From contig OZ252220.1 of NCBI GenBank assembly GCA_965249135.1, positions 64,001 through 128,000 of the forward strand: DNA of 64,000 nt, given 5' to 3'. Positions 4,913 through 64,000 of this stretch are shown piece by piece. Origin of the DNA: Alphaproteobacteria bacterium. GTDB taxonomy: Bacteria; Pseudomonadota; Alphaproteobacteria; GCA-2746255. Position 1 is the first letter of the stretch. Each line of letters opens with the position of its first letter. Made by a program: the position numbers and the translations under genes. The notes beneath the pieces are model-generated. The model had not been told where the DNA came from, made no database searches, and worked only from the letters and a program-made list of their open reading frames with translations.

Positions 4913-7518
4913 CTTCCCTTTCGTCGAATCGTCATTAGCGCTGGAATAAGGGTCAGCGTACAGATCATCACCAGAACCAGAGCAACGGTCAACAGCATGC
5001 CCATGCTGGCGGTACCAACATGCGTCGAGAGAGTAAGGCTTGCAAAAGAACCGACCGTCGTCAGCGCGCTGAACACGACGGCACGTGGTGTGCTGGTACG
5101 AAGGACATCGTCGCTCATGCTGTTTCGCTCCCGAAGAACGAAATGAATGCCATTCGCCACGCCAAGTCCTAGAATCAGGGGAAGGACGATGACATTTGCA
5201 AAGTTGAAGGGAATGTTGAAAAGCACTCCAAGCAGGTTCGTCAAAACGGCGGCAAGGCCAAGCGGAGCAAGTACGAGAAAAATGTCGGAGACTCGCTGCA
5301 GCACGATGGCGAGCAGCAGCGTGATGAGAACGAGCGCAAGGACCGTCGCTTGCCAAAAGGCGTCGATGACGGCTTTGACGGCGCCGACCATCACGATCGG
5401 ATCGCCAGTAGCGTTCGGAGCAATGGCCTGAACGGCGGTGGTGAAACGGAGAAGACTCTCCGGATCCTTCGGATTCTCGGCCGGTCGAACCTCAACCCGT
5501 GCTCGGCCATCGTCGGTCACGAAACGTGCGAGAAGCGATTCCGGTAGCATCGCAAAGCTCACGCGTTCCGCAGTAAGCGCGATACGAAGGTGGGCCAATT
5601 GCTTGAAGAGGGTGCCCAGAACTCGCTTCTCGAGCGCATCGAGCGGCGGGCTCTCGGGGAAGGCCGCATCCAGGCGTCGCAAGGCCTCGGCAAGTCGCAC
5701 CGCCGCCTGCACGTGATCGGCAGATGGATTTTCCGTGGCCAAGCGTTTGATGTTTTCATGGAAATCGGAAAACGATTTTTGACGGTCCGCCTCCGCGGGC
5801 CGGGGCGTCTTTCCCTCCATCATCAGAACAGGCAGCAGAATCACGGAGAGGTCTTCAAGCAGCAGCAGTTTTTCATCTTGATCTGCGGGTACGAAATCCT
5901 GGGGTATGAGGACACCGTTCACTTCCGGCAGCGCTGAAAGCTTTTCCTTTAGCGTTGTCGCTTCCTCGAGATTGTCGGCAAGGATCGTAATCGCATAAGG
6001 ATCGATCTCTCCCTCCTTCAGGAGATCCTGTAAGGTGCGCATGGCTTCGCTGTTTGGGTTCTGAAGGTTCAGCGGATCGAAGTCGAACCGAGCAAAAGGC
6101 AGGGCGGCAAGGCCGGTAACGGCCAGCAAGCCGCTTATCACGACGATCGCCCAGGCGTAGCGGCGAACGATTCCAGGGAAATCAAAAGGCAGAATCGGCG
6201 GCGGGGTTGCCCTGCGTGGCGGCATCCAGGCGAGAAACGCGGGCAGGATCGAGAGATTCGCAAAAAGCGCGATGAACATGCTCGTTCCGGCAATCAATCC
6301 AAGTTCGGCGAGCCCACGGTAGTCCGTTGGCAGGAATGCATAGAAACCGATGGCTGCCGCGACAGCGCAGAAGGTAAGGGCACCGCCGGCCCCTTCTGCC
6401 GTGCACTCAAGGGCGGATGCGACGTTCATGTCCTTCTCGAGTGCTTCCCGGAAGCGGAGCGAAAAGTGAATCCCGAAATCGACGCTTAATCCGACGAAGA
6501 GAACGACGAAAGCGACGGAAATCAAGTTGAGGTGGCCAACGGCGAAGGCAGCAAAGGCAAGACTCCAGACGAGGCCCATGATCAATGTCAGCAAGGCGGC
6601 CAACACCAACCGTGCCGAGCGAAGGCCGATCAGGAGAAAACCCGTTACCAGCGTCACAGAAACCGTGCCTACGAGGCCCATCCCTTCCTGGATGCTCTGA
6701 AGTTCCGCCTGGTCGAGGGCGGCGAAGCCGGTCAGACGAAGGCGAACGTCGTTTCGGGGGTCAAGCGAGGCGGCGACCTCTCGGATCGTTTCCATGGCGG
6801 TCTTCGCTGGCGTGAGGGTCGAGTAATCCAGGACCGGCTGTACGGCGATCAATTGCCGTCCTACGGAAGAAATCGCTTCCCCTTTCATCATCTTTTTCCA
6901 CGACATGTCGTGCAGTCGGTGTTCCGCCATTGCCTCGACGACTTCAGTGAGCCCGTTGAAAACCCGACTCAACCCTTTTGCATCTTCGGGTTTTTTCTCA
7001 AGAACGTCGTCAATCGCTAGCCCCAGCATTTCGAACAGGCCATTAAGGGTGAGGTTCTTCGCAAGGGTTCCGAGAAAAGGCTGATTCTCGGAAAGACGTA
7101 GCGCAAGATCGTCGAGTTCCTCGGTGTCGAGATAAAGAAAGCCGTGTTTCTCGAAATAGGGGTCGGCGGGTGGGTAAAAAATGTTCCGGAACAGATCCGT
7201 TCGCTCGCGTAGGCGTTTGGTAAGGTCTTCGGCCAGGATGTCCACGTAATCCGGATTGTCGCCTTCGAGAACGACAAGGATGACGTCCGAATATTGTGGG
7301 AAGGCTGCCTTTATCGTTTTGGCGTGTTTCCGGAACGGGAGCTCGGGCGAAAGCAGATCCGTCGTCCGCGTATTGATGCCGAGCGTGTCGACAGTATAGG
7401 CGGCAAGGCCCAAGGTCGCAGCGACGGCAACGAAAATAACCGTCCGCGCCCGGTGGTGGACAATGGCTATCCACCGGATGAGTATTTGGCGATACCAGTT
7501 GGTTATTCTGCTAATCAC
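4909..7518 (-). CDS. hpnN: Hopanoid RND/MMPL transporter HpnN
   Basis: 869 aa with two RND TM blocks; LNLISVAFVVLFVGLSVDFGIH and FDFDPLNL; hpn context. Confidence 0.9.
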   Translation of the reverse strand: MISRITNWYRQILIRWIAIVHHRARTVIFVAVAATLGLAAYTVDTLGINTRTTDLLSPELPFRKHAKTIKAAFPQYSDVILVVLEGDNPDYVDILAEDLTKRLRERTDLFRNIFYPPADPYFEKHGFLYLDTEELDDLALRLSENQPFLGTLAKNLTLNGLFEMLGLAIDDVLEKKPEDAKGLSRVFNGLTEVVEAMAEHRLHDMSWKKMMKGEAISSVGRQLIAVQPVLDYSTLTPAKTAMETIREVAASLDPRNDVRLRLTGFAALDQAELQSIQEGMGLVGTVSVTLVTGFLLIGLRSARLVLAALLTLIMGLVWSLAFAAFAVGHLNLISVAFVVLFVGLSVDFGIHFSLRFREALEKDMNVASALECTAEGAGGALTFCAVAAAIGFYAFLPTDYRGLAELGLIAGTSMFIALFANLSILPAFLAWMPPRRATPPPILPFDFPGIVRRYAWAIVVISGLLAVTGLAALPFARFDFDPLNLQNPNSEAMRTLQDLLKEGEIDPYAITILADNLEEATTLKEKLSALPEVNGVLIPQDFVPADQDEKLLLLEDLSVILLPVLMMEGKTPRPAEADRQKSFSDFHENIKRLATENPSADHVQAAVRLAEALRRLDAAFPESPPLDALEKRVLGTLFKQLAHLRIALTAERVSFAMLPESLLARFVTDDGRARVEVRPAENPKDPESLLRFTTAVQAIAPNATGDPIVMVGAVKAVIDAFWQATVLALVLITLLLAIVLQRVSDIFLVLAPLGLAAVLTNLLGVLFNIPFNFANVIVLPLILGLGVANGIHFVLRERNSMSDDVLRTSTPRAVVFSALTTVGSFASLTLSTHVGTASMGMLLTVALVLVMICTLTLIPALMTIRRKGS

Positions 7519-9608: not shown

Positions 9609-9919
9609 CCGAAGCAGTTTAGAAAGGGACCGGCCTGCACCCATCTACCCACTCCTTGACTATGGTCAATTTACTAGACTTTTCAGAAAGATACCATCGT
9701 TTTAACCATGTGGCAAACGCCCAGTTCCCACGAGGGGCGGGGAGCATCTAAACGGAATTTTCTTACCATTTCCTTGCCGGCCCCCAGATCCTTTGGATGG
9801 CTTCGTTCTGTCGAAAATCGGCCAGAGGCTTGCTCGCACTTTGCACGACCGCCTAACATAGCGTCATGGGGCAGGGGCCTTTGGTGTAGGCGAAAGAGGT
9901 GAGCTCTAGAGGACCGAAA

Positions 9920-10690
9920 ATGTCTAATCCCATTCTTTCCGTAACCGACAAGGACGCCTTTCGGCGGGATGGATTCGTCATCGTCCGGCAGCTTTTCGAT
10001 GTGGATGAGATGCGCCAGGTCGAAGTATGGACGAACGAAGTTGTCGCCATGCCGGAGGTTCCTGGAAAGCAGATGGTCTATTACGAGGATAGCCTCAAGG
10101 AGCCTGGCAAGCGTGTGCTCCAGCGGATCGAGAATTTCGCACCCTATCATGAGGGGCTTTGGGAGCTTTTCAATGGGTCGAAGATGCGAGGCCCCGTCTC
10201 GGAACTCTTTGGCGAACCGGCAGTTCTGTTCAAGGAGAAGATCAACTTCAAATTGCCGGGCGGGGGCGGGTTCAAGCTGCATCAGGATCAGCAGGCCGGC
10301 TGGGGGGTCTATGCCGATTTGTTCATTACGATGCTTGTCAGCATCGATGATGCAATGATAGAGAACGGCTGTCTCGAACTTGCGGCCGGCCATCATGCCA
10401 AAGGTCTCATAGGAAAGGTGTGGGAACCCTTAAACGAGGAGGATGCGAGCCGAGAAAGGTTGGATCTCGTTTCCTTCGCGAGCCAAGCTGGGGATGCGGC
10501 GATATTTAATTCCTTCGTGCCGCACCAATCGAAGCCGAATCGCACGAACGAACCGCGGCGGGTGCTATATGTGACCTACAACAAGGCATCGGCCGGCGAC
10601 CACCGGGTCCAGTACTACGCCGACAAACGGCAAAACTATCCGCCGGATATCGAACGGGAAGCGGGCAAAGACTACGTGTTTCGCGTTTGA
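9920..10690 (+). CDS. PhyH-family Fe(II)/2-oxoglutarate dioxygenase, PhnY-like (AEP 1-hydroxylase candidate)
   Basis: HQD...H metal triad; LFKEKINFKLPGGGGF, ENGCL, FNSFVPH, RRVLYVTYN and YYADKRQNYPPDIERE resemble remembered PhnY motifs; phosphonate context. Confidence 0.75.
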   Translation: MSNPILSVTDKDAFRRDGFVIVRQLFDVDEMRQVEVWTNEVVAMPEVPGKQMVYYEDSLKEPGKRVLQRIENFAPYHEGLWELFNGSKMRGPVSELFGEPAVLFKEKINFKLPGGGGFKLHQDQQAGWGVYADLFITMLVSIDDAMIENGCLELAAGHHAKGLIGKVWEPLNEEDASRERLDLVSFASQAGDAAIFNSFVPHQSKPNRTNEPRRVLYVTYNKASAGDHRVQYYADKRQNYPPDIEREAGKDYVFRV

Positions 10691-10716
10691 GTCAACTATC
10701 GAAAAGGTGAGCCCAC

Positions 10717-10977
10717 GTGAATAACGTGTCGAGCTGGGATCAACGCATGGGCCGATTGCTTGCTCGGGGACTGGCCCGTACTCCGATAACTCCAAATCAC
10801 GTCTCGCTCTTTTCACTCTTCATCGCAGTGACGGGCGCGGCCCTCTTTGCGGCCGGCAAGGAAACGTGGGCGTATTGGGGAGCCAGCTTTTTCGTTCTCG
10901 GACGCGTGGTCGACCACGTTGATGGCGCGCTTGCCCGGCTCACCGGAAAAACGCTTGGTACCGTGAAGGGGACCTGA
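10717..10977 (+). pseudogene. Truncated CDP-alcohol phosphatidyltransferase
   Basis: 86 aa with TPN and DHVDGALARLTG, then stops before the G-x3-D-x3-D half of the motif. Confidence 0.7.
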
Positions 10978-10980
10978 AGT

Positions 10981-11580
10981 CTAGTCACGCGTCCCGTGTA
11001 AGCGAAGGCGCAAATAAGCAAAGACAGTAAAAGCCAGTGCGCCGATTGCGGCGGCAACAAGGAGGGGCTCTCCCCAACCAAACCACATGGCGAACGGCAC
11101 GGCAAGAATTGCATCGTCGGGGTCGAAGCCGCCGGTTCCTTCGAAAGCGGGCTTGCTCTTGCCCTCGCGGATTTCCATCTGGACGACGAGGCCAAGGACC
11201 GCCGCCACCGACAGACCAGCCAATAAGCCCAACGGCATTGACCAGAGGCCAAGCGCACTGGCGCGCAGCCCGATGCCAATTCCGATGAACAGGGCGGCAT
11301 TTACGACCGCGTCGCAGACAAGGTCGAAACGATGCCCCCATTCGGTCGTAACGCCGGTGATGCGCGCAAGCTCGCCGTCCGCGCGGTCCAACGCCACGGA
11401 AAGAAGAAAAAAGATTCCGCCAAGAAACGTCCACAGAGGCTCCCCAATCGCGTAAGCCGTCGCAGCCCCCAGACCCGCGAGCAGACGAAGCGTCGTCAAT
11501 TGGTTCGGCGTAACCGACGTGCGGGCAAGGACTCGGGTCGGTGGCCGGACGAGGCGGTGGATCCAAGTATTGTGGCTCAT
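10981..11580 (-). CDS. CDP-alcohol phosphatidyltransferase family protein
   Basis: Complete motif DRADGELARITGVTTEWGHRFDLVCD; TPNQLT; several TM helices. Confidence 0.9.
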   Translation of the reverse strand: MSHNTWIHRLVRPPTRVLARTSVTPNQLTTLRLLAGLGAATAYAIGEPLWTFLGGIFFLLSVALDRADGELARITGVTTEWGHRFDLVCDAVVNAALFIGIGIGLRASALGLWSMPLGLLAGLSVAAVLGLVVQMEIREGKSKPAFEGTGGFDPDDAILAVPFAMWFGWGEPLLVAAAIGALAFTVFAYLRLRLHGTRD

Positions 11581-14018: not shown

Positions 14019-15670
14019 AGAAAGTTGCGTGCTTTCGCGAGATCGAAAGGATCGTCGATATCGAGCCAGTGACCAGTAATGTACTGCACTTGGATCTTAT
14101 GACCTGACTCGACCAGCCGGTTAAAGAGATCCGGCATGTCCGCCGTCTGCAGGCTGCCATCCGTGGACATCACTTCAATCTCATCCCGGACAATCTTTGC
14201 ACCATTCGGGCTGAGTAGGACAAGTCCCACCCATTCACCATGAATTTCATCGGTTGGGATTTCCGTTCCGACACGAAGCAATCGCGCCGTGTCGCCCTCA
14301 AGGTAATCGGGGTGGAAGGGGTTGTCGCATTGAACGAAATCGCGTGTACGCTTCTGCGTTTGACGTTCCCGCCAAAGTGCGTCGGCGGCGACAGTAATAT
14401 CGGCATCCGACCCCTGCAGCTGTTCAAGAATGTAGCTTCGGTAAAGGATATCGCCGTAGGTAATGAGACAAGGCCCATCCTTTAACTGATCGATTGCGCA
14501 AGCAAGCGAGGCGACCTCGCCGGTCTCGGCAAAGTTGGCGTTCGTACGCATATCGATCGCCGGTATGTCGATGGCTTCCTTCCGATAGCCGCCGACGACA
14601 GTAACGTTGCGAATGCCACTCTCGCGTATCGTTGCAATCATCGTACGCAGCAGAGGTTTGCCGCGCACATCGATCATGCATTTCGGGCGGTCTTCGGTAA
14701 GCGGGCCAAGAGAATCGCCCCGCGTTGCCGCAAGGATGATCGCACGTGCCTTTTCACCTCTTTGCGGCAGATAACGCCGTTCCGCCTCTGCCAGCTCGGT
14801 TTGTCCTGCAAGTTCGAAGACGTCCTTCACCGACGCAACGGTATCTTCAACGTTGACTAGACTTTGACTCTCATAGATCCGTTTGCATACGTCCCGCATT
14901 CCGGCAATGGCGGCACGCAGATTGTGATTTGCCCAAATGACCGTTGATATCCCGGCATTCTCAAACTGCCCCGTCGGCGTCGCATAGTACATCGTCGGCA
15001 CAATGATAACCGAACATGTGTTTCCCCATTCCTTCATGAAGGCGAAGATTTCATCCGCGGTTTTCTCTTTGGAGTGTACGAGAAGTGCATCGGCGCCGGC
15101 TTGATGATAAGCCTCGGCGCGCCGCAGCGCTTCATCCAATCCCCAACCTGCGATGAAAGCCTCGATCCGCGCGATGACGCAGAAGTCAGAGTTGAGTTGA
15201 CTGTCTTTGCCTGCCTTGATCTTGCCACAGAACTCATCAATGTCTGCCAGGGGCTGGCCTTCCCCGAGGAAGGAATTCGTTTTCGGAAACTGCTTGTCTT
15301 CGATGCAGACACCGGCAACGTTTCGCTGGCAAAGCTTCGTCACCAGCCGGCGAACGTTGTTGAAATTCCCATAGCCCGTATCCCCATCCACCAGGATCGG
15401 GATCGATGTCGCATCCGACATGAATTCGAGGATTTCGAGGACCTGGGTCCAGGAGGCCTCGTTGTTGTCGCGTACGCCAAGGGCCGCTGAGATGGAGAGA
15501 CCGGACGCCCAAATGCCACGAAAACCGGCTTCCTCGACAATCTTCGCAGAAAGCCCGTTATGGGCTTCCATCAGAAAGGAGAGTTTCGGCGAAAGCAACT
15601 CCCCACGAAGGAGCGCTGCCTTCGTAGGCTCTGAGGATGCTTCCGGCGCGCGTTTCGGAAGAACGGTCAT
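14015..15670 (-). CDS. pepM: Phosphoenolpyruvate mutase fused to a C-terminal NTP-transferase (cytidylyltransferase) domain
   Basis: [10 protein letters not shown] matches the PepM EDKxxxxxNS signature; DGDTGYG; C-terminal ILAATRG...DRPKCM...WLDIDD. Confidence 0.96.
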
Positions 15671-15834
15671 CGGCCCAGAATTTTCATGGATGGGACCCGT
15701 AACATTTACGTCATATCTCTTGGATTTTCAAATGCCTGTGTTGACTTGCCACGAAGCTCAATGACGGTCGAGCTTGCACGCCTGCCCTACCGGTGCGATA
15801 TCCGGTCGGAAAACGTAGGACGAGGGTATCCCCT

Positions 15835-53488: not shown

Positions 53489-53577
53489 GCCCGCTTGGCG
53501 GAATTGGTAGACGCAACGGACTTAAAATCCGTTTCCTGGAAACGGGAGTGCTGGTTCGAGTCCAGCAGCGGGCACCA
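53489..53577 (+). tRNA. tRNA-Leu(TAA)
   Basis: GCCCGCT...AGCGGGC ACCA acceptor; ACGGA-CTTAAAA-TCCGT anticodon arm; long variable arm; GGTTCGAG T-loop. Confidence 0.96.
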
Positions 53578-53599: not shown

Positions 53600-55363
53600 T
53601 TACGCCAGCGCCTCGAAAAGAGGCGCCAGACGATGCTCGTAGTGCCGCCAGTGCCGGACCGCCTTCGTGGTCATCGGCCGGCGAATTTGGGCGACACTTG
53701 CAATCTGCACCTGCCGCTCCGTCTTATGGAAATCGAGGCATGCCGCTTCCCAGGGAAGCCCGCAGAAATCCAAGACCTTTCGCGTGACCGTTTCCGGATC
53801 CTCGACAAGGCTCTCGTAAGAGACATCGAAGATGCGCCCGGGCAGCACCGCACGCCAGTGATTCATTAAGCGTTCGTACAGCTTATAGAAGCGCCCGAGT
53901 TCGGTGAGGTCATACGCAAAGTTTCGTTCCTCGTCGAAAAGGCGCTTGTAACAGGAAAGACAGGTATCGAATGGATTGCGCATCGCGTGAAGAATCTTCG
54001 CATTCGGGAACGTCAAATGAATAAGACCGATGATGCGAAAATTATAGAGCCATTTGTCTGCGATGCACTGCGCATCCGGGGCCAGACGGGTCATGCTGTC
54101 CACATAGGTTTGTCCGAAGCGTTCGAAATCTTTTGCTTCCAGGCCGCGAATCGTCTCAGGAAATTCGCGCTCGGACGATGCGCCTAACCGGTGTGCGTGA
54201 TACGCAAGCTCTTTACGTTCACCGGCGCCGTAAACGTGGGAATGGCTCGCCAAGATCTGTTCAATAAGACTCGCGCCGGAACGTGGCATGCCGATGATGA
54301 AAATAGGTTTTTCACTGGCACAACCCTTGACCGCGCGCTCGGTTAGGAAGGGTTTGTCAAAGGTGTTAAGGATCCGATTCGTCATCGCTTCTTCCTCGGC
54401 GATGTCGAACGTGCAGGTCGCGCGCTTTAATTCATTCCCCCGTGCGTAGTGGTCGAAGGCACGGTCATAATCCTCGCAATCCTCATACGCTTTGCCGAGT
54501 GCGAAACAGAGGTGCATCGCCTGCTGGTCGGATAGCGCCGGTTTGGCAAGTTTCGTTTCCATCGCCGCGATGTCGGGATCTTGGGCCAAAAAACTTTTCA
54601 GATCCGCAATCCGAAGATGAACCATCGTAAAGTCCGGCTGTTGTTGCAGGACGTGACGAAAGGCCGTTTCCGCCTCCTCGAAACGCCCCAGTCCCATCAA
54701 TGTATTGCCGAGGTTGTAATGCGCTTCGATAAAATTCGGCGCTTCTTTAAGGGCCTGGCGATAGATGGCAAGCGCTTCGTCGGATCGGCGCATTTCGACG
54801 AGCGTAGTGCCGAGATTCACAACCGCTTCGAGCAATTGCGGCTGCAGTTTAATCGCCGTTCGGTAGGCTGTGATTGCCTCTTCGAATTGGCGCGAATTCG
54901 CAAGAGCGAGACCAAGGTTGTACTGCGCGCCTGCATTAGCGGGCTCGGTTGCCAGGTAAGTTTGATAGGCCGCGATTGCTTCTTCGAACCGTCCAAGGGC
55001 CATTAGTGCGTTCCCAAGGTTGTAATGGGGGGCGGCATTCGCAGGCTCGAGCGCGATTGATTGACCATAAGCGTCGATGGCTTCTTCAAACTTTCCTTGC
55101 TGATGGAGAGCGGCGCCGAGATTGAAATGGGTATCGGCCGAGTTCGGATCCTGTGCCAGCGATTTCTCGAAGCAGGCGATCGCCTCCGCCACGTTGCCCT
55201 TCTGGTGACAAAGCACGCCAAGGGAATGCAAAATGGTAGAGTCGGTTGGTTGGCTGGCGAGCAGCTTCCGATAGATCCTTTCTGCGTCATCCAACAGCCC
55301 TTGCTGATGAAGATGAAGCGCATCTTGAAGGACGGCGGCGTTTGAGCTGTCCGTATCTTCCAT
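53600..55363 (-). CDS. TPR-repeat sulfotransferase family protein
   Basis: Several TPRs (HYNLGNAL-type); PIFIIGMPRSG, RNPFDTCLS, YESLV, FCGLPWE; start ATG 55363. Confidence 0.88.
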   Translation of the reverse strand: MEDTDSSNAAVLQDALHLHQQGLLDDAERIYRKLLASQPTDSTILHSLGVLCHQKGNVAEAIACFEKSLAQDPNSADTHFNLGAALHQQGKFEEAIDAYGQSIALEPANAAPHYNLGNALMALGRFEEAIAAYQTYLATEPANAGAQYNLGLALANSRQFEEAITAYRTAIKLQPQLLEAVVNLGTTLVEMRRSDEALAIYRQALKEAPNFIEAHYNLGNTLMGLGRFEEAETAFRHVLQQQPDFTMVHLRIADLKSFLAQDPDIAAMETKLAKPALSDQQAMHLCFALGKAYEDCEDYDRAFDHYARGNELKRATCTFDIAEEEAMTNRILNTFDKPFLTERAVKGCASEKPIFIIGMPRSGASLIEQILASHSHVYGAGERKELAYHAHRLGASSEREFPETIRGLEAKDFERFGQTYVDSMTRLAPDAQCIADKWLYNFRIIGLIHLTFPNAKILHAMRNPFDTCLSCYKRLFDEERNFAYDLTELGRFYKLYERLMNHWRAVLPGRIFDVSYESLVEDPETVTRKVLDFCGLPWEAACLDFHKTERQVQIASVAQIRRPMTTKAVRHWRHYEHRLAPLFEALA

Positions 55364-55675
55364 GGGATACCGTTCTACACGACGGCCGGATGATTGCGAT
55401 CGATATACGCCAACGTTCAGCAGGAAGCTCCGCTTTCCCCGGGGGCCTTCAGCGAAGGCTCGGTGGAGAGCGGAGAGACGGACGATGTTGCAGTGCACAA
55501 AACACCGGGCAAGCGTTCTAAAAATGGGGCGCGCCCGCACGGGACGAAAAAGGCAACACGAACAAGCAGATGTGAAATGCTCTTGCCATTCGCTCACCCA
55601 TTTTTTAAGAGAGCGTTGAGGATGATTTTTAAGCTGGCGGTAACCATCTATACCCTTGGAAAACGTGCAGTTTCA

Positions 55676-55704
55676 TTGACTTTTTCGCCTAAAATTCCTA
55701 TGTT
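55676..55704 (+). promoter_or_regulatory. Candidate sigma70 promoter of the monooxygenase operon
   Basis: TTGACT-17 bp-TATGTT about 60 bp upstream of the alpha-subunit ATG. Confidence 0.55.
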
Positions 55705-55766: not shown

Positions 55767-57332
55767 ATGGTCGCGGTTCCGAAAGTCGAAGTCAGGCCAC
55801 AGGAGGTTCACAAATACCTCCAGGAGTTTGGCTGGAACATCGGCAAACGTCGCGGCAAGTACCCGACGAAATACAACTACAATCCAAACGCGCGTGAGCA
55901 GTTCAAGCTCATCGCCAAGGAATATTGCCGCATGGAAGAGGAAAAAGACGACCGCCAGTATGGCACGCTCCTCGATGGTCTTGCGCGGATGAGTGTCGGC
56001 AGTCGGATCGAGCCACGTTGGAACGAGGTGATGAAGATTGCCTCGGACTTCCTGGCATCCGGTGAGTACGCGGCGATCTCGGGCACCGCCGTTTTGTGGA
56101 ACGCGACGCAAAGCCCTGAGCTGAAGAACGGCTACCTTGCTCAAACGATGGACGAGATCCGACATACGGCGCAGACGGGCTATCTAAACTCTTACATGGC
56201 AAAGCACACCTACGATCCGGCAGGTCATTCGGATTCGAGGCGCGTGCGCTACATGAACCCGCTATTTCGGCCTTGCCGGCGGGCCCTCGTCGAAGGATTC
56301 TGCGCCGGCGATCCGGTCGAATGCTCGCTGAACCTTCAGATGGTCGCCGAAGCCTGCTTCACGAACCCACTTATCGTCGGTTTGACGGAATGGGCGGCGG
56401 CGAATGGTGACGAAGTCACCCCGACGATCTTCCTTAGTATCGAGACGGACGAACTTCGTCACATGGCGAATGGCTATCAGACGATCGTCTCGATCATTCA
56501 CGAGCAGGAAAATCACAAATACATCCAGACGGATCTCGAAAACACGTTCTGGATACAGAACAAGTTCATCACCCCGTTCGTAGGTGCGGTGCTGGAATAC
56601 GGGTCCGTAAACAAGGTCGAGCCTTGGGCGGTTACCTGGGATCGCTGGGTGTATCAGGACTGGGCATCCATGTGGCTCGGCAGGCTTGCGAAATTCGGCA
56701 TTAAGACACCGCGGAATCTGTTGGAAGCGAAGGTTGAAGCCTACTGGTCCCACCACGCGGCCTTCCTAGTTGCGACGGCGCTATGGCCGCTCATGTTGAT
56801 CCGTATCGAGCCGCCGAACGAGAAGGATGCGGAATGGTTCGAGAAGAGTTACCCAAGCTGGTATGCGCGCTATGGCGTGCTCTATGATGTCTGGAAGGGC
56901 ATGAACTATCAGGATCCGGCCAGTAACTTCATTCCTTATCAGTGGCTGCAGAAGAACAACGTGCGTGTTTATGTCTGCCGCACCTGCCAGATGCCGACGG
57001 TTTCACCGGACGTCTATGGCGGAGCGAAGAAGGCGCGGGTCGTCGAATATGGTGGTCGGCTCCACGCCTTCTGCTCGGATATGTGCGAGCGGATGTTCTT
57101 CATGGAACCGGAGCGTTATCACAACCAGATGTCGTTCTTCGAGGAATTCGATGGCTGGAACTTGGCAGACATCGTCGAGAAGTTCCATGGCGTCCGCTCC
57201 GATGGCAAGACGTTGACATCCCAGCCACATCTTGACTCGAAGCGCATGTGGACCGTGGACGATCTGCGTGCGTGCGATTGCGTGATCGAAGACCCGTTAC
57301 GCGTATTCCACGGCACTGCGGCTACGCATTAA
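55767..57332 (+). CDS. Soluble di-iron monooxygenase hydroxylase alpha subunit (MmoX/BmoX-like)
   Basis: Di-iron ligands E100, E130xxH133, E195, E229xxH232; EQFKLIAKEY, ECSLNLQ, EACFTNPLIV, TEWAAANGDE, SIETDELRHMANGYQT, RSDGKTL match remembered MmoX. Confidence 0.95.
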   Translation: MVAVPKVEVRPQEVHKYLQEFGWNIGKRRGKYPTKYNYNPNAREQFKLIAKEYCRMEEEKDDRQYGTLLDGLARMSVGSRIEPRWNEVMKIASDFLASGEYAAISGTAVLWNATQSPELKNGYLAQTMDEIRHTAQTGYLNSYMAKHTYDPAGHSDSRRVRYMNPLFRPCRRALVEGFCAGDPVECSLNLQMVAEACFTNPLIVGLTEWAAANGDEVTPTIFLSIETDELRHMANGYQTIVSIIHEQENHKYIQTDLENTFWIQNKFITPFVGAVLEYGSVNKVEPWAVTWDRWVYQDWASMWLGRLAKFGIKTPRNLLEAKVEAYWSHHAAFLVATALWPLMLIRIEPPNEKDAEWFEKSYPSWYARYGVLYDVWKGMNYQDPASNFIPYQWLQKNNVRVYVCRTCQMPTVSPDVYGGAKKARVVEYGGRLHAFCSDMCERMFFMEPERYHNQMSFFEEFDGWNLADIVEKFHGVRSDGKTLTSQPHLDSKRMWTVDDLRACDCVIEDPLRVFHGTAATH

Positions 57333-57352
57333 ATCCTATCGGTCTCGTCGGA

Positions 57353-57380
57353 GAGGGGGTTTCACGATAGGAACCCCCTC
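57353..57380 (+). other. Intergenic stem-loop between the alpha and beta genes
   Basis: GAGGGGGTT / AACCCCCTC followed by a T-rich tract. Confidence 0.5.
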
Positions 57381-57448
57381 CCGTTTCTTTGACCCAAGCG
57401 TTCGAAGATTCCCGTATCAGGGGACGGCTAGAGAGGAAGCACATCCCG

Positions 57449-58606
57449 ATGCCTATTAAGAAAACTAAAGTCCGAAGAGGCATTTTCCCGGATACCGAGC
57501 CGCAAGAATCGGAGCCGCTTTCGGAAGATCGTAATTACGTCTATTTCGCAAAGCCGCGATGGAAGAAGCTGACGGAATACGAAAGGCTGATCCTCTATGC
57601 GCAACCGAACCCGGATTGGATTCCCGGAGGCCTTGATTGGGGGGATACGCCGGCGAAGTTCAGCGGCGGTCGCGATACCTGGGGCAATTATTTCACGGAG
57701 ATGCGCTGTCAGGATTGGTATGCCTTCCGGGATCCCCACCGGCGCTGGCAATACCCATACGTGTCGGAAAAGGCAGATGAATGGCGCAGTCTGCAGCGCC
57801 GTCTCGCCGCCTATGCGGAATTGCGCGAATGGGAAGTGATGAATCCGTGGTGGCGGGACGAGATCATCGGCAAGATTTGGGCGGCGTTTCTTCATCATGA
57901 ATATGGTGTGTTCAACTCCATGTCCTCCGTCTGCAGGGACGTATTGAGCGACATCATTCGCACCGCAACCTGTTCGGGTGCCTTCGATCTGCTTGACAAT
58001 TCGCAGATGATCCACATGCAGCGGCTGTTCCTGGCCAAGATTCTGCCGGATACGTTTAATCCGGAGATCGGTCTTGGGAAGGAGGCATGGCAATCGTCCG
58101 ACCTTTACGCGCCGGCCATTAAACTGGTCGACGAATTGTGGGACGAGACAAGCGATCATTGTGAGATCATGTTCGCCCTCTTCATGATCCACCAGCCGCT
58201 ATTCAGCCGGGTGGTCCGGAACGAGCTCATGGAACGCCATGCCGGGTTCTTTGGCGATACGCTGACCAGCCTTTTCCTTCCGGATATGAGCCGGGCCCAT
58301 CGCGTGGCCATGGATTGGAACTTCGACCTGTTCCACAATATCTTTGCCGGCGATCCGGAGTTTGGGCCGATGAACCTGAAAATCATGCAACTCTGGTTGG
58401 AACGCTGGTTGCCGAAGACGCTCGAGTGTGTGCACGCCTTCAAGGACGTGTTCGAACTTCCGGAAATCAAGGCCGCACGCGTGGCAATGGGCGCCGCCCC
58501 CATTGACGAACGGTTTGCAACCCTCCTGGCGGATTGGCAGGAGAAATATCTTGATCCAATAGGGCTCGAGATGGATTTGAACGCGGCGAAAAAAGCCGCC
58601 GCTTGA
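57449..58606 (+). CDS. SDIMO hydroxylase beta subunit (MmoY-like)
   Basis: PRWKKLTEYE, YAQPNPDWIPGGLDWG, DWYAFRDP, ADEWR; SD GAGAGG before ATG 57449. Confidence 0.92.
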   Translation: MPIKKTKVRRGIFPDTEPQESEPLSEDRNYVYFAKPRWKKLTEYERLILYAQPNPDWIPGGLDWGDTPAKFSGGRDTWGNYFTEMRCQDWYAFRDPHRRWQYPYVSEKADEWRSLQRRLAAYAELREWEVMNPWWRDEIIGKIWAAFLHHEYGVFNSMSSVCRDVLSDIIRTATCSGAFDLLDNSQMIHMQRLFLAKILPDTFNPEIGLGKEAWQSSDLYAPAIKLVDELWDETSDHCEIMFALFMIHQPLFSRVVRNELMERHAGFFGDTLTSLFLPDMSRAHRVAMDWNFDLFHNIFAGDPEFGPMNLKIMQLWLERWLPKTLECVHAFKDVFELPEIKAARVAMGAAPIDERFATLLADWQEKYLDPIGLEMDLNAAKKAAA

Positions 58607-58642
58607 TGCGGTTTACCGATCCAGCTTAAGAGGGGTGCGGAA

Positions 58643-59101
58643 ATGGATGACAAGGAAAAAAAGGATGGCGTCGAAGCAGTCGAACACGTCAGCCACGAAG
58701 ACCACATCAAGGAAATTCAATACGATGAGGATACCTTCGACGCACAGGCCTTCCAGGACAAGTTCTTAAGCCAAGACAAGCTTCGCTCGACGGATAACGT
58801 CGCGATGGCGTTGATGAAGACGGAAGAAATCGAGTTCATCGTTGAGGAATTTTTGGTGGACAAGGAGGGCATTTACATCGAGGATCGATCGGCCTTCTTC
58901 TATGTGGATTCGTGTGTGGAAATTGTCCTCGATTTCGATGAAATCGAAGAAGCGCTTGGTCGCCCATACAACGTCTATGATTTTCTCGTGAACCTCTCGA
59001 CAGCCGTCGGACGGGCACTCACGGTTGGAAACAAGTTCGTCCTCACGACGCGTTTGGTCGGCATCGAAATGGAAGTCGATGAGGAACCTGACGCCACCTA
59101 A
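58643..59101 (+). CDS. SDIMO coupling/regulatory protein (MmoB-like, with N-terminal extension)
   Basis: LGRPYNVYDFLVNLSTAVGRALTVGNKF resembles MmoB LGRQFNVYDFLVDVSSTIGRAYTLGNKF. Confidence 0.9.
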   Translation: MDDKEKKDGVEAVEHVSHEDHIKEIQYDEDTFDAQAFQDKFLSQDKLRSTDNVAMALMKTEEIEFIVEEFLVDKEGIYIEDRSAFFYVDSCVEIVLDFDEIEEALGRPYNVYDFLVNLSTAVGRALTVGNKFVLTTRLVGIEMEVDEEPDAT

Positions 59102-59207
59102 AAAGCTAGCATTTCCAACCACGAATTCCGTGTGACGATGCGATCAGCCGCCAAGTGCGTGTGCCGACTGGATGCGTTCTAACGAACCGGGTTTAAAGGC
59201 GTTTTAG

Positions 59208-60242
59208 GTGATGCATAAAGTGCGTTGCACCTTCATGGACGGAAAGGAGTTCGAATTCGACTGCAGTTCGGATGAGAACGTCCTTGCGGCTGCCCGGCGT
59301 CAGAATATCATTCTACCGGCCTATTGCTTGGAAGGTATTTGCGGGACCTGCAAGGCGCGGCTCGAAGAAGGGGAAGTGGATATGGGCCATGCCGAACTCG
59401 GTGCCCTCAGCCCTTCGGAGGAAGAAGAAGGCTACGTGCTTCTCTGCCAGGCCCATCCGGAAACCGATATCGAGGTCCAATTCGAAATCGATTCCGAGCG
59501 CGTCACCGCCCCCCAGGAAGCCCAGGCGGAGATCCTTGAACTGGGTCCCGCCTCACCGGCGGGAGACGTTTATCGGCTTGTTCTTAAAGGAGAATTTTCA
59601 GATATCTTCTTCTGGAACCCGGGCCAGTACATCGCGATTAACGTGACGGATACGCCGGAATGGCGCATGTTCTCCATGGCGAATACGGCGAGCATGGACA
59701 ACGTCCTCGAGTTCTATATCCGCATTCTCCCCGACGGGGTCTTTTCGGACTTTCTCCGGGATCAGGCGAAGGCCGGCGACACGTTGGCCATCAAGGGCCC
59801 TTACGGGCTTTTCTTCTATAACATTACCGATCGCCCCCCCGTTTTCATAGGCGGCGGGACGGGCCTTGCGCCAAACCTTGCGATGATTCGCCAGCTTTCC
59901 ACCCAGTTTTATCCGAAACGGATCCGTCTCTTCTTTGGCGTCACCAATCCGGGGGAGCTTCATTGCAAGGAAGAAATCGAGAGTCTGCAGGATGCACTTC
60001 CCGATTTTGCCCCCTACTATGCCTGCGTGAATGCCGACGAATCCTGGGAAGGAGACAAGGGCTTCGTCACGGATAGCCTGTTGAAGCACATGGCGGAGGA
60101 GGATTTCACGGGTTACGAATTCTATCTTTGCGGACCGCCGCCAATGGTTGAGGCCGTCGACAAGATCCTGCAGGAAAAAGGGGTCGAACGCTCGCAAATC
60201 CACCGTGAGGAATTTGTTCCCTCTGGTGTAACGGACACCTAG
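59208..60242 (+). CDS. SDIMO reductase (2Fe-2S ferredoxin-FAD/NAD, MmoC-like)
   Basis: CLEGICGTC...LLCQ, PGQY, RMFSMAN, GGGTGLAP, YLCGPPPM, EEF. Confidence 0.93.
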   Translation: MMHKVRCTFMDGKEFEFDCSSDENVLAAARRQNIILPAYCLEGICGTCKARLEEGEVDMGHAELGALSPSEEEEGYVLLCQAHPETDIEVQFEIDSERVTAPQEAQAEILELGPASPAGDVYRLVLKGEFSDIFFWNPGQYIAINVTDTPEWRMFSMANTASMDNVLEFYIRILPDGVFSDFLRDQAKAGDTLAIKGPYGLFFYNITDRPPVFIGGGTGLAPNLAMIRQLSTQFYPKRIRLFFGVTNPGELHCKEEIESLQDALPDFAPYYACVNADESWEGDKGFVTDSLLKHMAEEDFTGYEFYLCGPPPMVEAVDKILQEKGVERSQIHREEFVPSGVTDT

Positions 60243-60739: not shown

Positions 60740-61852
60740 ATGCAAACAGGGAAACTAGGCGTCTTCGCTTCGAAGGTCGCTCCGTGGGCGATCATCGGGG
60801 GGCTTTTGATCGTTTCGCGGGTTGAACCCGAGCCAGTTGGGCAACCGGTCCAGATCCCGCCGATTGGCGAACGCGACCGGTATTATGGAATCCAGATACC
60901 CGAACCGGGCATCCTTTGGATGGTTGGCAATGGCGGAAAAATCATCCGCAGCGAGGATGATGGTGTGACCTGGAAAATCCAGGATACGCCGACGACTCTG
61001 AATTTAATGTCGATCGCCGCCTGGGATAAGGACAACGCCATAGTGGTGGGGAACACCGGGCTCATAATGGTGACGCAGGACGGCGGTCAGACCTGGGAAG
61101 AGCGGGGTTCTCCCAAATCCAGGATTGCCAACAAGCTGATCCGCGTGCGCATCATCTCCGGTACCGATAAGGCGCTGGCCGTCGGCATCTTGGGCAAGGT
61201 TCTGCTCTCGCAGGATAGGGGCGATACCTGGGAGCAGCAGTACTTCTATTACGACTTTTCCTTCTTCGAAGAGCGTTTCAACGATCTGGCGGGCGGTGTC
61301 CGACGGGTCAATCAGGACGTCATTCGCCGGGGACGTTTCTCACGGGACATCATCTTTCACGACATTGCCATTCTTGGCGAATGCGAGTGGATGGTGACCG
61401 CCGAGTTCGGCTATTTGCTTCAAACGAAGGACTGCGGCTACAATTGGCGCGAACTTCGTCCAGCTTACGATAGCATTCACAGCATCAAATTCCGGGATAA
61501 GGACCACGGCGTCATCGTCGGAGGTTCGGCGACAATCCTGGTCACGTCCGATGGCGGCGAGAATTGGGATCAACTGGACCCAGAGGGTGTTCCAACCTCG
61601 CATCTTTACGATGTCGAGTGGGTAGATGAGGCCCAGACTTGGGTCGCCACGGGTGAAGGTGGCCTTGTCGTGAAAAGCGACGCATCCGGTGACACCTGGA
61701 ATGCCGAGTTGGTTAGTCCCGGTAAATCTCCCTGGTTTGTCGATCTCGAGCCGCATAAAGGCACGCTTTATATCTGTGGCGAAGACGCTGGGATTTTGAC
61801 GGTGGATTCCGGGGACTGGGTCGAACTTCCCCGCCCCGAGTCACACTTTTAG
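60740..61852 (+). CDS. YCF48/BNR-repeat beta-propeller protein
   Basis: Asp-box repeats SEDDGVTW, TQDGGQTW, SQDRGDTW, TSDGGENW; N-terminal hydrophobic anchor. Confidence 0.85.
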   Translation: MQTGKLGVFASKVAPWAIIGGLLIVSRVEPEPVGQPVQIPPIGERDRYYGIQIPEPGILWMVGNGGKIIRSEDDGVTWKIQDTPTTLNLMSIAAWDKDNAIVVGNTGLIMVTQDGGQTWEERGSPKSRIANKLIRVRIISGTDKALAVGILGKVLLSQDRGDTWEQQYFYYDFSFFEERFNDLAGGVRRVNQDVIRRGRFSRDIIFHDIAILGECEWMVTAEFGYLLQTKDCGYNWRELRPAYDSIHSIKFRDKDHGVIVGGSATILVTSDGGENWDQLDPEGVPTSHLYDVEWVDEAQTWVATGEGGLVVKSDASGDTWNAELVSPGKSPWFVDLEPHKGTLYICGEDAGILTVDSGDWVELPRPESHF

Positions 61853-61871
61853 TTGCGGAGGATTGTGAGCC

Positions 61872-64000
61872 ATGGCTAAAAAATATGACGAAGGGATGAC
61901 GCGGGGCATCGAGTGGTTGTGCACCTTTACCATCCGCAATCGTCTCGCCTTTCTTATCGTTTTGGGAATCGCGACCATCGCCTTGGGCGCGTTAGTGGCA
62001 TCGAAGACGCGGATCGAGAGCTATTTCCCCGATCTCCTGCCCCAGGATCATCCCTACGTCAAAATCAACGAACAATATAAAGAGACCTTCGGTGGCTCGA
62101 ACATGATCACCATCATGATGGAGGTCAATGAAGGGGATGTCTTCACGACACCATTCCTGCAGAAAATCAAGAATCTTCAGTTCAACCTGCGTCTGGTGCC
62201 TGGCGTCAACCAATTCCAGGTGGTCTCCATCGCCGGACGGAAACTGAAAAGGGTGAGGGCCTCGACGGCAGGCGTCGAAACCCGTCCGTTTATGGATAAG
62301 GAGACCTATCGAGCGGGCGAAGGCGTTCCACAAAGCCAAAAGGAGCTCGACCACCTTCGCGATGCGATCCTGACTTCGAAAGTGGTTTATGGGACCTATA
62401 TCGCGAGGGATCTTCGTTCGGCCCTGGTGACGGTCGACTTCATCGATCGTCTGTTGGAATACACGCCGGCCTTCAACACGATTAACGAGGTCCTGGATAA
62501 AGAGCGGGATGACACGGTCAATATCCGGGTGGTGGGCGAGCCCATGCTCTATGGCTGGGTCAATTACTACTTCCCGGAGACGATGACGATCTTCCTGCTC
62601 ACTTGGGCCGCGTTGATGGCGTTCCTGTTCATCGTCATGCGGACCTGGCGGGGCACGTTCCTGCCCCTGCTGTCCGGTCTCGTGGCCGGCACGTGGGCGC
62701 TGGGCTTTGTCGCCTTGCTGGACTTTAACTTCGACCCGCTCGTCGTCGTCGTGGCGTTCCTGCTGACGGCGTTGGCGATTTCCCACTCCGTGCAGTTGAC
62801 GGTCCGATTCGACGACAATGTCAACCGCGGCTACACGGACATGAAACAGGCCGCCTGGCAGGCGATGACGATGCTGACCCGGCCACTCATGCTGGGTATC
62901 GTCGCGGATGCAGGTGCCATGTTGGTCGTGGCATTGACCCCGATCCCACTGCTTCAAAAGGTGGCGATCACCGGGTCGCTCTGGGTGATGACGATCATTG
63001 TCAGTGCGTACTTCCTGACACCGCTCTTGCTGAGCTACGTGCAGAAACCGAAAAGCGTACTGCATCCGATCGACGTCCAGCCCGCCATCCACAAGTTCCT
63101 GGATCTGGCGGTGAACACGACGACCGCTCCGGCTACCCGGAAATGGGTGTTGATTAGTGCGTTGGCGATCTTCGTCGTGGCGGGGGGGATTTCCTTCCGG
63201 CTCACGGTGGGGGATGCGAACCCAGGTTCGCCGATCCTTTGGCAGGATTCGAACTACAACCTCGATGCAGGCGTCATCAATACGACGTATCGCGGAGCCG
63301 ACCGCATGTTCATCGTCGTGAAGGGGCCGAAGAATACGCTGAAGTCCCCGGCCATCCTTCGGAACATGGCGAATCTCCAGCGTTTCATGGAGGCGCAGCC
63401 CGAGGTGGGTGGCTCCGTTTCGATGGCCGACATTCTGCCGGCGATCCAGCGGGTCTTCTATGAGGGCAACCCACGCTTCTACGAAATTGGCGATGACCTC
63501 CTGGTGAACGGGGAACTGGTCTACCTTTACATCTCCGGTACCGACCCAGGCGACGTCGATAAGTTTGCCAATTTCGTCTTTAGCGAGGGTTCGGTTCGTT
63601 TCATGTTCCGCGACCACAAGGGCACTACGATCCGCACCGGACTCGCGCGCCTCAAGGACTACATCGCAGAGAATCCACTCGAACTCGAGGATGATTTTGG
63701 GCTGGCGCACGAGATTTCCGACTATGGCGGAGGCATCAGCAAGGCCGTCCTTGGCGGAGCCGCGAAGAAGCTTGAGCACGAAGCCGGAACTGGCCTCGGC
63801 CGAGCAGAGGCCCAGGCGGTGCCGGAATACTACATGGCCGGCGGCTTGATCGGTGTATTGGGTGCGGTGAACGAGATCATCCTTGCCAAGCAGATCGAGG
63901 CGATTGCGTTGGCGCTCCTTTGGGTCGGCCTCTGCGCGGCCGTCGTTTATCGGAACGCCTCGGCGGCGCTGTTCTTCATGGTACCGGTGGCTCTGTCGAA
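61872..64000 (+). CDS. MMPL/RND family transporter, partial (runs off the window)
   Basis: Translated by hand from ATG 61872: MAKKYDEG...FPDLLPQDHPYVKINEQYKETFGGSN, then DPLVVVVAFLLTALAISHSVQ; missing from the ORF track because no stop occurs in the window. Confidence 0.88.
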   Translation, partial: MAKKYDEGMTRGIEWLCTFTIRNRLAFLIVLGIATIALGALVASKTRIESYFPDLLPQDHPYVKINEQYKETFGGSNMITIMMEVNEGDVFTTPFLQKIKNLQFNLRLVPGVNQFQVVSIAGRKLKRVRASTAGVETRPFMDKETYRAGEGVPQSQKELDHLRDAILTSKVVYGTYIARDLRSALVTVDFIDRLLEYTPAFNTINEVLDKERDDTVNIRVVGEPMLYGWVNYYFPETMTIFLLTWAALMAFLFIVMRTWRGTFLPLLSGLVAGTWALGFVALLDFNFDPLVVVVAFLLTALAISHSVQLTVRFDDNVNRGYTDMKQAAWQAMTMLTRPLMLGIVADAGAMLVVALTPIPLLQKVAITGSLWVMTIIVSAYFLTPLLLSYVQKPKSVLHPIDVQPAIHKFLDLAVNTTTAPATRKWVLISALAIFVVAGGISFRLTVGDANPGSPILWQDSNYNLDAGVINTTYRGADRMFIVVKGPKNTLKSPAILRNMANLQRFMEAQPEVGGSVSMADILPAIQRVFYEGNPRFYEIGDDLLVNGELVYLYISGTDPGDVDKFANFVFSEGSVRFMFRDHKGTTIRTGLARLKDYIAENPLELEDDFGLAHEISDYGGGISKAVLGGAAKKLEHEAGTGLGRAEAQAVPEYYMAGGLIGVLGAVNEIILAKQIEAIALALLWVGLCAAVVYRNASAALFFMVPVALS

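Follow-up and report, generated by a model that had tools for sequence, protein, structure and literature searches.

What is to be made of an operon that resembles soluble methane monooxygenase (sMMO) yet appears to come without a gamma subunit? The question is raised by four genes near the end of a 64,000-nucleotide stretch of an alphaproteobacterial genome (the window, G000:C1:64001-128000; the genome is a single 2.12-Mb contig, 98.75% complete), which an initial annotation had read as a gamma-less alpha2beta2 soluble di-iron monooxygenase (SDIMO). We argue instead, and would put the probability at roughly 0.8, that the genome encodes a five-protein group-3 SDIMO whose gamma subunit is the N-terminal domain of a 416-residue gamma-EthD protein, the gene for which has been displaced from the operon. 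The four adjacent genes, recognised from open reading frames (ORFs; 55767-57332, 57389-58606, 58643-59101 and 59208-60242, all on the plus strand) and their family matches, stand in the order alpha, beta, coupling protein, reductase, as the initial annotation had it:

55767..57332, plus strand: hydroxylase alpha subunit (MmoX-like, 521 aa); Phenol_Hydrox 148 bits
57449..58606 (ORF open from TTG 57389), plus strand: hydroxylase beta subunit (MmoY-like); Phenol_Hydrox 119 bits, NCBIfam MmoY 379 bits
58643..59101, plus strand: coupling/effector protein (MmoB-like, 152 aa); MmoB_DmpM 66 bits
59208..60242, plus strand: NADH oxidoreductase (MmoC-like); Fer2, FAD_binding_6 and NAD_binding_1, MmoC 304 bits

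The beta gene is likely to begin at ATG 57449, given that alignments with relatives start at residue 21 and that a purine-rich GAGAGGAAG stretch lies 5' of this codon; the reductase gene likely starts at ATG 59211. Alpha matches MmoX of Methylococcus capsulatus Bath (PDB 1fyz_A) with 665 bits over residues 8-514, compared to 96 bits for phenol hydroxylase and 82 bits for toluene monooxygenase among the other solved hydroxylases, and the coupling protein scores 87 bits as MmoB versus 37 bits as MimD, so that an affinity to group 3 rather than to the phenol, toluene or propane types is upheld. An MmoB-type effector and a Fer2-FAD-NAD reductase, as expected of group 3, are both encoded within the operon. 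A gamma subunit is not: the window contains no match to the gamma family PF02964 in a whole-genome scan at E<=10, and there is no gamma- or MmoD-like ORF between the four genes or in the 497 nt 3' of mmoC, as the initial annotation had also noted for the following 500 bp.

Where, then, might the gamma subunit be? Across the whole genome the same scan returns exactly one match to PF02964 (MeMO_Hyd_G; 107.7 bits, 143862-144320, plus strand). It falls outside the window in the following gene, for which we also give the coordinate on segment L002 (G000:C1:128001-148000; an L002 coordinate plus 64000 is the extrapolated window coordinate):

G000:C1:143829-145079 (L002:15829-17079), plus strand: gamma-EthD fusion gene, 416 aa, 46 kDa

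The gene starts 19,586 nt 3' of the reductase stop on the same strand. Its product carries gamma as its N-terminal third (residues 12-164; MeMO_Hyd_G 105 bits in Pfam, NCBIfam MmoZ 110 bits), followed by two EthD domains that account for the C-terminal two thirds (PF07110 41.7 bits against a cut-off of 22; TIGR02118 71.6 bits in three stretches, against a cut-off of 30.5). Residues 13-164 align end to end with residues 10-165 of MmoZ in PDB 1fyz_E (E 8.9e-25), and the solved structures matched by the gamma domain comprise seven entries, every one of them an MmoZ hydroxylase subunit. The initial annotation had itself stated that a gamma subunit at another site in the genome would undo its gamma-less alpha2beta2 enzyme, and this single match, a complete MmoZ homologue joined to an EthD pair 19.6 kb downstream, is such a gene.

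The fusion recurs as one conserved protein, albeit a rare one. In a search of 5.8 billion proteins, 11 of 12 matches are single conserved ORFs with both domains (342-416 aa, 43-100% identity). Among 1.84 billion representatives at 50% identity there are only two full-length fusions (P0128, 413 aa; P0230, 378 aa) plus one fragment, the next matches being stand-alone gammas (172-194 aa) and stand-alone EthD proteins (about 109 aa), the latter matching profile positions about 170-305 or about 312-410. A collection of one genome per species (185,579 species), from which records close to the genome of the window may be missing, holds three fusion loci. When the alphaproteobacterial forms are compared part by part, gamma emerges as the best-conserved portion (69-88% identity, versus 54-85% for the first and 61-87% for the second EthD domain), even where the gene no longer adjoins mmoC. 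In the aligned fusions the EthD part has invariant residues H171, H194, Y258, E263, H265 and H287 (numbered as in the window genome's protein).

In other lineages the fusion sits inside the monooxygenase operon. We compared 16 loci that encode it, three of which (L022, L024, L025) are cut too short to show its neighbours. In five loci from other lineages that carry the short, 378-aa type (L015, L016, L023, L026, L027; four distinct sequences, as L027 is near-identical to L015) the fusion begins 77-83 nt after mmoC and is the last gene of the operon. Two of these, from metagenome-assembled genomes (MAGs) labelled Methylomirabilota (L015) and Enterobacteriaceae (L016, a 275-kb contig), share the order alpha, beta, MmoB, an ORF of 108/109 aa, reductase, fusion, and their alphas are 72-75% identical to that of the window. 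The small ORF (L016:8555-8884; L015:2568-2894) is a homologue of MmoD (PDB 6d7k_D, E 2.1e-8) which, scoring 55 bits with TIGR04550 against a cut-off of 80 and having no Pfam match, would be annotated as hypothetical. Given this order and the MmoD homologue, the ancestral-looking operon of the clade would be X-Y-B-D-C-Z', a permutation of the canonical X-Y-B-Z-D-C. One further locus, L028, has a gamma-like match of 35 residues (L028:4772-4876) after a group-4/7-like operon of beta, coupling protein, alpha and reductase. This fragment is a 5'-truncated gamma-EthD and we did not count it as a gamma gene: it lacks a start codon, two stops lie just upstream of it and it runs off the contig end, which points to a gene fragment or remnant, or to a chimeric contig.

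Within the genus, alpha is present in four of five genomes (G001, G003, G004, G005; 87-90% identity) and the fusion in three (G001, G004, G005; 65-76%). The same three also encode unk478, one of the genes between mmoC and the fusion, and the flanking genes at both cluster ends are kept in G001 and G005. We had considered G002 as an island-less control, since it is without alpha, fusion and unk478, but dropped it: both flanking genes are missing as well, and absence from a 91%-complete genome may be an assembly gap and so proves nothing.

How does the enzyme relate to known members of group 3? A protein search with alpha gives matches at 98, 75 and 74% identity and then none above 59%. We built a maximum-likelihood tree (LG+G4, 1000 ultrafast bootstraps plus SH-aLRT) of 64 rows: the window, G001, L016, all 49 matches (P0002-P0050) and 12 outgroup rows picked from matches at 38-44% identity. 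Group 3 (52 rows) separates from the outgroup with 100/100 support, and inside it the window alpha belongs to a clade of its own (5 rows, 100/100). A clade of 27 rows (98/98) contains Mycobacterium sp. ENV421 and a Mycolicibacterium protein; another of 18 rows (100/100) contains a Methylococcaceae MAG, a protein of Azoarcus sp. DD4 and P0045, a near-identical match to Bath MmoX in PDB 4gam/1fyz (1096-1098 bits). We infer from row names that the 27-row clade is the Smo side and that the two clades equate to subgroup A and subgroups B+C of PMC11825192, the placement of butane monooxygenase (BMO) resting on the named Azoarcus and Methylococcaceae rows only. The window's clade is sister to the 18-row, sMMO+BMO-side clade (91/86), so that the earlier suggestion of a separate lineage near sMMO holds. 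Identity of the window alpha is 74-75% within its own clade and 53-59% to 47 group-3 rows, above the level of at least 50% to group-3 members by which membership has been defined (PMC11825192, section 3.3).

All six di-iron ligands are kept (E100, E130, H133, E195, E229 and H232, corresponding to E114, E144, H147, E209, E243 and H246 of MmoX), as are T213 and N214 in MmoX numbering. The substrate cavity differs: C151, F188 and G208 of MmoX are replaced by T137, L174 and A194, and throughout the five rows of the clade position 208 is A and position 188 is either L or A. The C/F/G triplet itself occurs in 9 of the 18 rows on the sMMO/BMO side, P0045 included, and in none of the 27 on the Smo side. 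L110 and F188 are described as cavity gate residues of sMMO in a passage of PMC6774732, and the smaller gate residue here suggests substrates larger than methane. Methane, in other words, is probably not the physiological substrate.

Electron flow from NADH through a reductase to the di-iron site, under control of an effector, is established for the sMMO family. By analogy, electrons would pass here from NADH via the MmoC-type reductase to the di-iron site of alpha, while the MmoB-type effector would gate access of substrate and O2, as in sMMO. The hydroxylase would be an (alpha beta gamma')2 assembly in which gamma holds the EthD pair on the outside and, because T/L/A stand at gate and cavity positions where sMMO has C151/F188/G208, would act on an alkane or alkene of C2 or larger rather than on methane. 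Free EthD-type proteins form homodimers; the two EthD domains of a single chain might correspondingly form a pseudo-dimer, an accessory module for assembly, stability or product handling that would lie outside the electron path, although our confidence in any specific role is low. In the alphaproteobacterial lineage, about 19.6 kb of genes in the same orientation would have come to lie between mmoXYBC and the fusion gene, with MmoD gone.

Fusions of gamma are not confined to EthD. Public data also contain MeMO_Hyd_G joined to a globin (P0237, 330 aa) and to a Fer2/FAD/NAD reductase (P0238, 523 aa), so that the gamma C-terminus evidently tolerates tethered partners. We read it as a tether point for functional partners, with the EthD pair a putative accessory module. 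One may go further and imagine gamma, long an enigmatic subunit of group-3 enzymes, as a docking arm for such modules, obligatory tandem EthD here and globin or reductase elsewhere, with the EthD pair a new required SDIMO component (in assembly, stability or product handling) that may link the monooxygenase to a pathway, related to pyruvate phosphate dikinase (PPDK), that activates the oxidation product. This is speculative and we consider it rather unlikely as it stands; if true, a required EthD pair could account for the resistance of some group-3 enzymes to heterologous expression, and a PPDK-like phosphotransfer pathway would be tied physically or regulatorily to a monooxygenase in a marine alphaproteobacterial lineage.

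The genes that now lie between mmoC and the fusion bear on whether the two still work together. Every gene from alpha through to the fusion lies on the plus strand, and convergent M20 peptidase and NAD kinase genes come next:

60740-61852, plus strand: BNR/Ycf48-like protein
61872 to genome position 128421, past the window end, plus strand: RND (HAE3/MMPL-like) transporter
L002:880-2598, plus strand: DUF1302
L002:2608-3942, plus strand: DUF1329
L002:3967-3995: strong terminator after DUF1329 (12-bp stem, T8 tail)
L002:4213-5127, 5288-6295 and 6387-7376, plus strand: three DUF7064/7065 paralogues
L002:7781-8194, plus strand: PEP-utiliser His-domain protein, 137 aa
L002:8258-9694, 9777-11228 and 14420-15751, plus strand: three paralogous proteins of 443-483 aa without a family match, 61-91% identical to each other
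L002:11313-11891, plus strand: 192-aa protein without an assigned family
L002:11891-14395, plus strand: PPDK-like protein, 834 aa

The PPDK-like protein matches pyruvate phosphate dikinase over residues 15-563 only (E 1.6e-127), that is, over the nucleotide-binding and phospho-His domains with an intact phospho-histidine motif; its C-terminal 275 residues match nothing else in the cluster or genome. Against PDB, the 478-aa protein and one DUF7064 paralogue gave chance-level matches only.

Several observations sit uneasily with a gamma subunit that serves mmoXYBC from a distance. First, mmoC is separated from the next gene by 497 nt, and this gap together with the terminator at L002:3967-3995 makes co-transcription of the fusion with mmoXYBC improbable; the fusion is probably transcribed with the PPDK-like module. 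Second, the fusion lies 3' of the PPDK-like gene or its unk443 neighbour in all six distinct alphaproteobacterial-type loci (L011, L012, L013=L014, L019, L020, L021) as well as in the window's own genome, so that it could serve this module instead. Third, a hydroxylase of the alpha2beta2 type is chemically possible, because SDIMO groups 4 to 7 work without gamma (PMC11825192, sections 3.3, 3.7). Fourth, we did not find the fusion in G003 despite the presence of alpha, in a genome that is only 88% complete and in 180 contigs. And with regard to substrate, the argument from sequence draws on three residue positions only.

The first three of these points, along with the loss of MmoD as a sign that the operon has been remodelled, are what recommends the strongest alternative, namely that the four genes do make a gamma-less alpha2beta2 hydroxylase and that in this lineage the module of PPDK-like and unknown proteins has recruited the distant gamma-EthD protein for itself. 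If that were so, it would be hard to see why the gamma domain has kept its full length and changed less than the rest of the fusion. In solved structures the MeMO_Hyd_G fold is found solely as a hydroxylase subunit. The five other-lineage loci have no PPDK-like module nearby (neighbours were viewed for L016 and L015), and alpha, PPDK module and fusion occur together in G000, G001, G004 and G005. On balance we consider the takeover improbable.

Could the enzyme be a true soluble methane monooxygenase and its host an unrecognised marine methanotroph? Alpha is 53% identical to the Bath-type P0045, and neither its position as sister to the sMMO+BMO side nor the retention of the six iron ligands, T213 and N214 would be out of place in such an enzyme; moreover, the genome encodes one PQQ methanol/ethanol-family dehydrogenase (556.8 bits, cut-off 480), which may be XoxF or of an ethanol type. 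Against this stand the T/L/A residues, shared with non-sMMO rows, and the genomic context. MmoD was not found in the genome, either with TIGR04550 at E<=10 or with tblastn using the clade's own MmoD homologues; there is only one GroEL gene (Cpn60 match, 1.91 Mb) and the only strong match to Sigma54_activat lies at 487 kb, far from the operon, which extends to the whole genome the earlier remark that mmoG and mmoR are missing. Nor did we find Fae in the genome, or pmoA, for which the control of the search also matched nowhere. A methanotroph is, in our view, very improbable.

That the enzyme is a decaying remnant, non-functional since the loss of mmoD and the displacement of the gamma gene, is scarcely credible with all five ORFs intact, alpha conserved at 87-90% with its ligands in four other species genomes of the genus and the fusion at 65-76% in three. 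Matches in G005 and G004 listed as having a TGA inside had raised selenocysteine or recoding in alpha, which we rejected: the TGA is the true stop, at the end of a 515-aa protein, and the search had read past it. We therefore retain the five-protein enzyme with the gamma-EthD protein as its predicted gamma subunit as the best explanation, at the probability of about 0.8 given above, which applies equally to the fusion being the hydroxylase's gamma.

A number of further features of the operon and its surroundings deserve mention:

53489..53577, plus strand: tRNA-Leu(taa) (ARAGORN), 2.2 kb 5' of the operon, a landmark only
53600-55597, minus strand: TPR-sulfotransferase gene, between tRNA-Leu(taa) and alpha
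55676..55704, plus strand: sigma70-like promoter match TTGACT-17-TATGTT, 63 nt 5' of the alpha start, weak
57353..57380, plus strand: GC-rich hairpin of 11 pairs with a T-rich tail, between alpha and beta

The operon had been described as lying downstream of tRNA-Leu, which is correct as to position, except that the minus-strand TPR-sulfotransferase gene intervenes. Sigma70-like sites upstream of alpha are not above chance (one seen, 4.1 expected from shuffles), and no sigma54-like site (TGG-N9/10-TGC) is present within 300 nt 5' of alpha. The alpha-beta gap measures 116 nt, and the hairpin within it is a possible attenuator or transcript-processing site setting the ratio of alpha to beta.

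The PPDK-derived module as a whole (L002:7781-15751; G000:C1:135781-143751) is conserved beside the gamma-EthD gene in six distinct loci and may represent a novel ATP-dependent phosphotransferase with the monooxygenase product as its substrate. Directly 3' of the reductase gene, the BNR/RND/DUF1302/DUF1329 set (window 60740-64000 and L002:1-3942), which ends at the strong terminator, may serve to take up or export hydrophobic compounds; DUF1329 has five further paralogues in the 2.1-Mb genome. DUF7064/DUF7065 (Rv3169-like) likewise has seven paralogues in this small genome, three in the cluster and others at G000:C1:466360-469434 and 1349463-1350386. We considered the cluster as a foreign island but rejected the idea for want of a clear compositional boundary: GC content is 55.8% in the cluster, 57.0% and 56.6% in the 20-kb flanks and 60.3% in the genome. 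A second, unrelated SDIMO with a group-1 layout (501-aa alpha, Rieske ferredoxin, 97-aa effector, beta) is encoded at G000:C1:1008188-1011900 (L017:6188-9893). Its alpha, which genus relatives encode as well, shares 23-25% identity with the window alpha; the enzyme could be of toluene, alkene or isoprene type. SDIMOs of the group-1 type do not use a MeMO_Hyd_G gamma.

In the running text of the literature searched, we found no description of the gamma-EthD fusion, of the X-Y-B-D-C-Z' order or of the clade. The terms 'fused', 'fusion', 'Rhodospirill' and 'Methylomirabil' are absent from the passages of the SDIMO review PMC11825192 that were covered, whose group-3 tree or tables S1/S2 could nevertheless hold clade members unremarked; the sections covered of PMC13603553 contain canonical mmoXYBZDC operons only. 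For EthD in connection with di-iron or methane monooxygenases, the material covered yields only a separate EthD-domain gene near a group-5 SDIMO (PMC12542641). The gamma-EthD enzyme is thus an undescribed variant within the methane/butane monooxygenase family, not a new kind of enzyme. Its practical consequence is that genome surveys, which score sMMO-like operons by the mmoXYBZDC set, may take as missing an mmoZ that is fused and displaced, and that expression work aimed at the substrate of this enzyme should start from five cloned genes, not four. More broadly, a clade that branches beside the sMMO+BMO side bears on the origin of methane oxidation from enzymes of larger alkanes, and gamma fused to EthD, globin or reductase offers a testable way into the function of the gamma subunit.

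Comparison with known systems places the enzyme further. The initial annotation had raised a link to the group-7 enzyme ZmoABCD of Solimonas soli, which likewise has four adjacent SDIMO genes and a physiological substrate that is not established. Group 7 is found mostly in marine bacteria and forms a clade distant from the other groups; its operon begins with beta, after which come coupling protein, alpha and reductase (PMC11825192, section 3.7), unlike the alpha, beta, coupling protein, reductase of the window, whose enzyme has a gamma and an alpha inside group 3 (53-59% identity). Zmo has reportedly been expressed in Pseudomonas putida KT2440 (PMC11825192, section 3.7). Given that placement, membership of the window alpha in the Zmo clade, with Zmo judged by its described gene order, is very unlikely, and the link does not stand.

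The C-terminus of the fusion recalls EthD of the Rhodococcus ruber eth (P450) cluster, which is required for P450 activity, and free 109-aa TIGR02118 proteins, with which it shares PF07110/TIGR02118 matches. Free EthD proteins are single 109-aa chains, whereas here a tandem pair is joined covalently to a hydroxylase subunit. EthD has also been linked to a multicomponent oxygenase for degradation of ethyl tert-butyl ether, and an EthD-domain gene adjoins a group-5 SDIMO, in the sections of PMC12542641 that treat it.

Smo of Mycobacterium NBB4, with five genes in the order alpha, beta, coupling protein, gamma, reductase, functions in the absence of MmoD (PMC11825192, section 3.3). A mycobacterial host has served for its expression. 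The present enzyme would resemble it in being a five-component group-3 enzyme without MmoD and in departing from sMMO at positions 151/188/208 (where P0040, the Mycolicibacterium row, has L/A/A), but Smo belongs to the separate 27-row clade, which is not sister to that of the window, and its gamma is free-standing and encoded before the reductase. Butane monooxygenase of Thauera butanivorans (BmoXYBZDC) and other subgroup-B enzymes have six genes including one for an MmoD-like protein, and occur outside methanotrophs (PMC11825192, section 3.3). Six genes, one of them for MmoD, likewise make up the related operons L015 and L016, in the order X-Y-B-D-C-Z' rather than the X-Y-B-Z-D-C of BMO and with EthD domains on Z.

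Finally, sMMO itself (MmoXYBZDC of Methylococcus capsulatus Bath and Methylosinus spp.) has a free gamma and MmoD in the order X-Y-B-Z-D-C, whereas the order here is X-Y-B-C, with gamma fused to two EthD domains and encoded after the reductase in other lineages or 19.6 kb away in the window's own genome. That genome is also without MmoD, MmoG and MmoR, has T/L/A for C151/F188/G208 and has no sigma54-type motif upstream of the operon. What the two systems share is an operon that starts with alpha, beta and effector, together with homologous alpha, beta, MmoB, MmoC and gamma domain and the same di-iron ligands.

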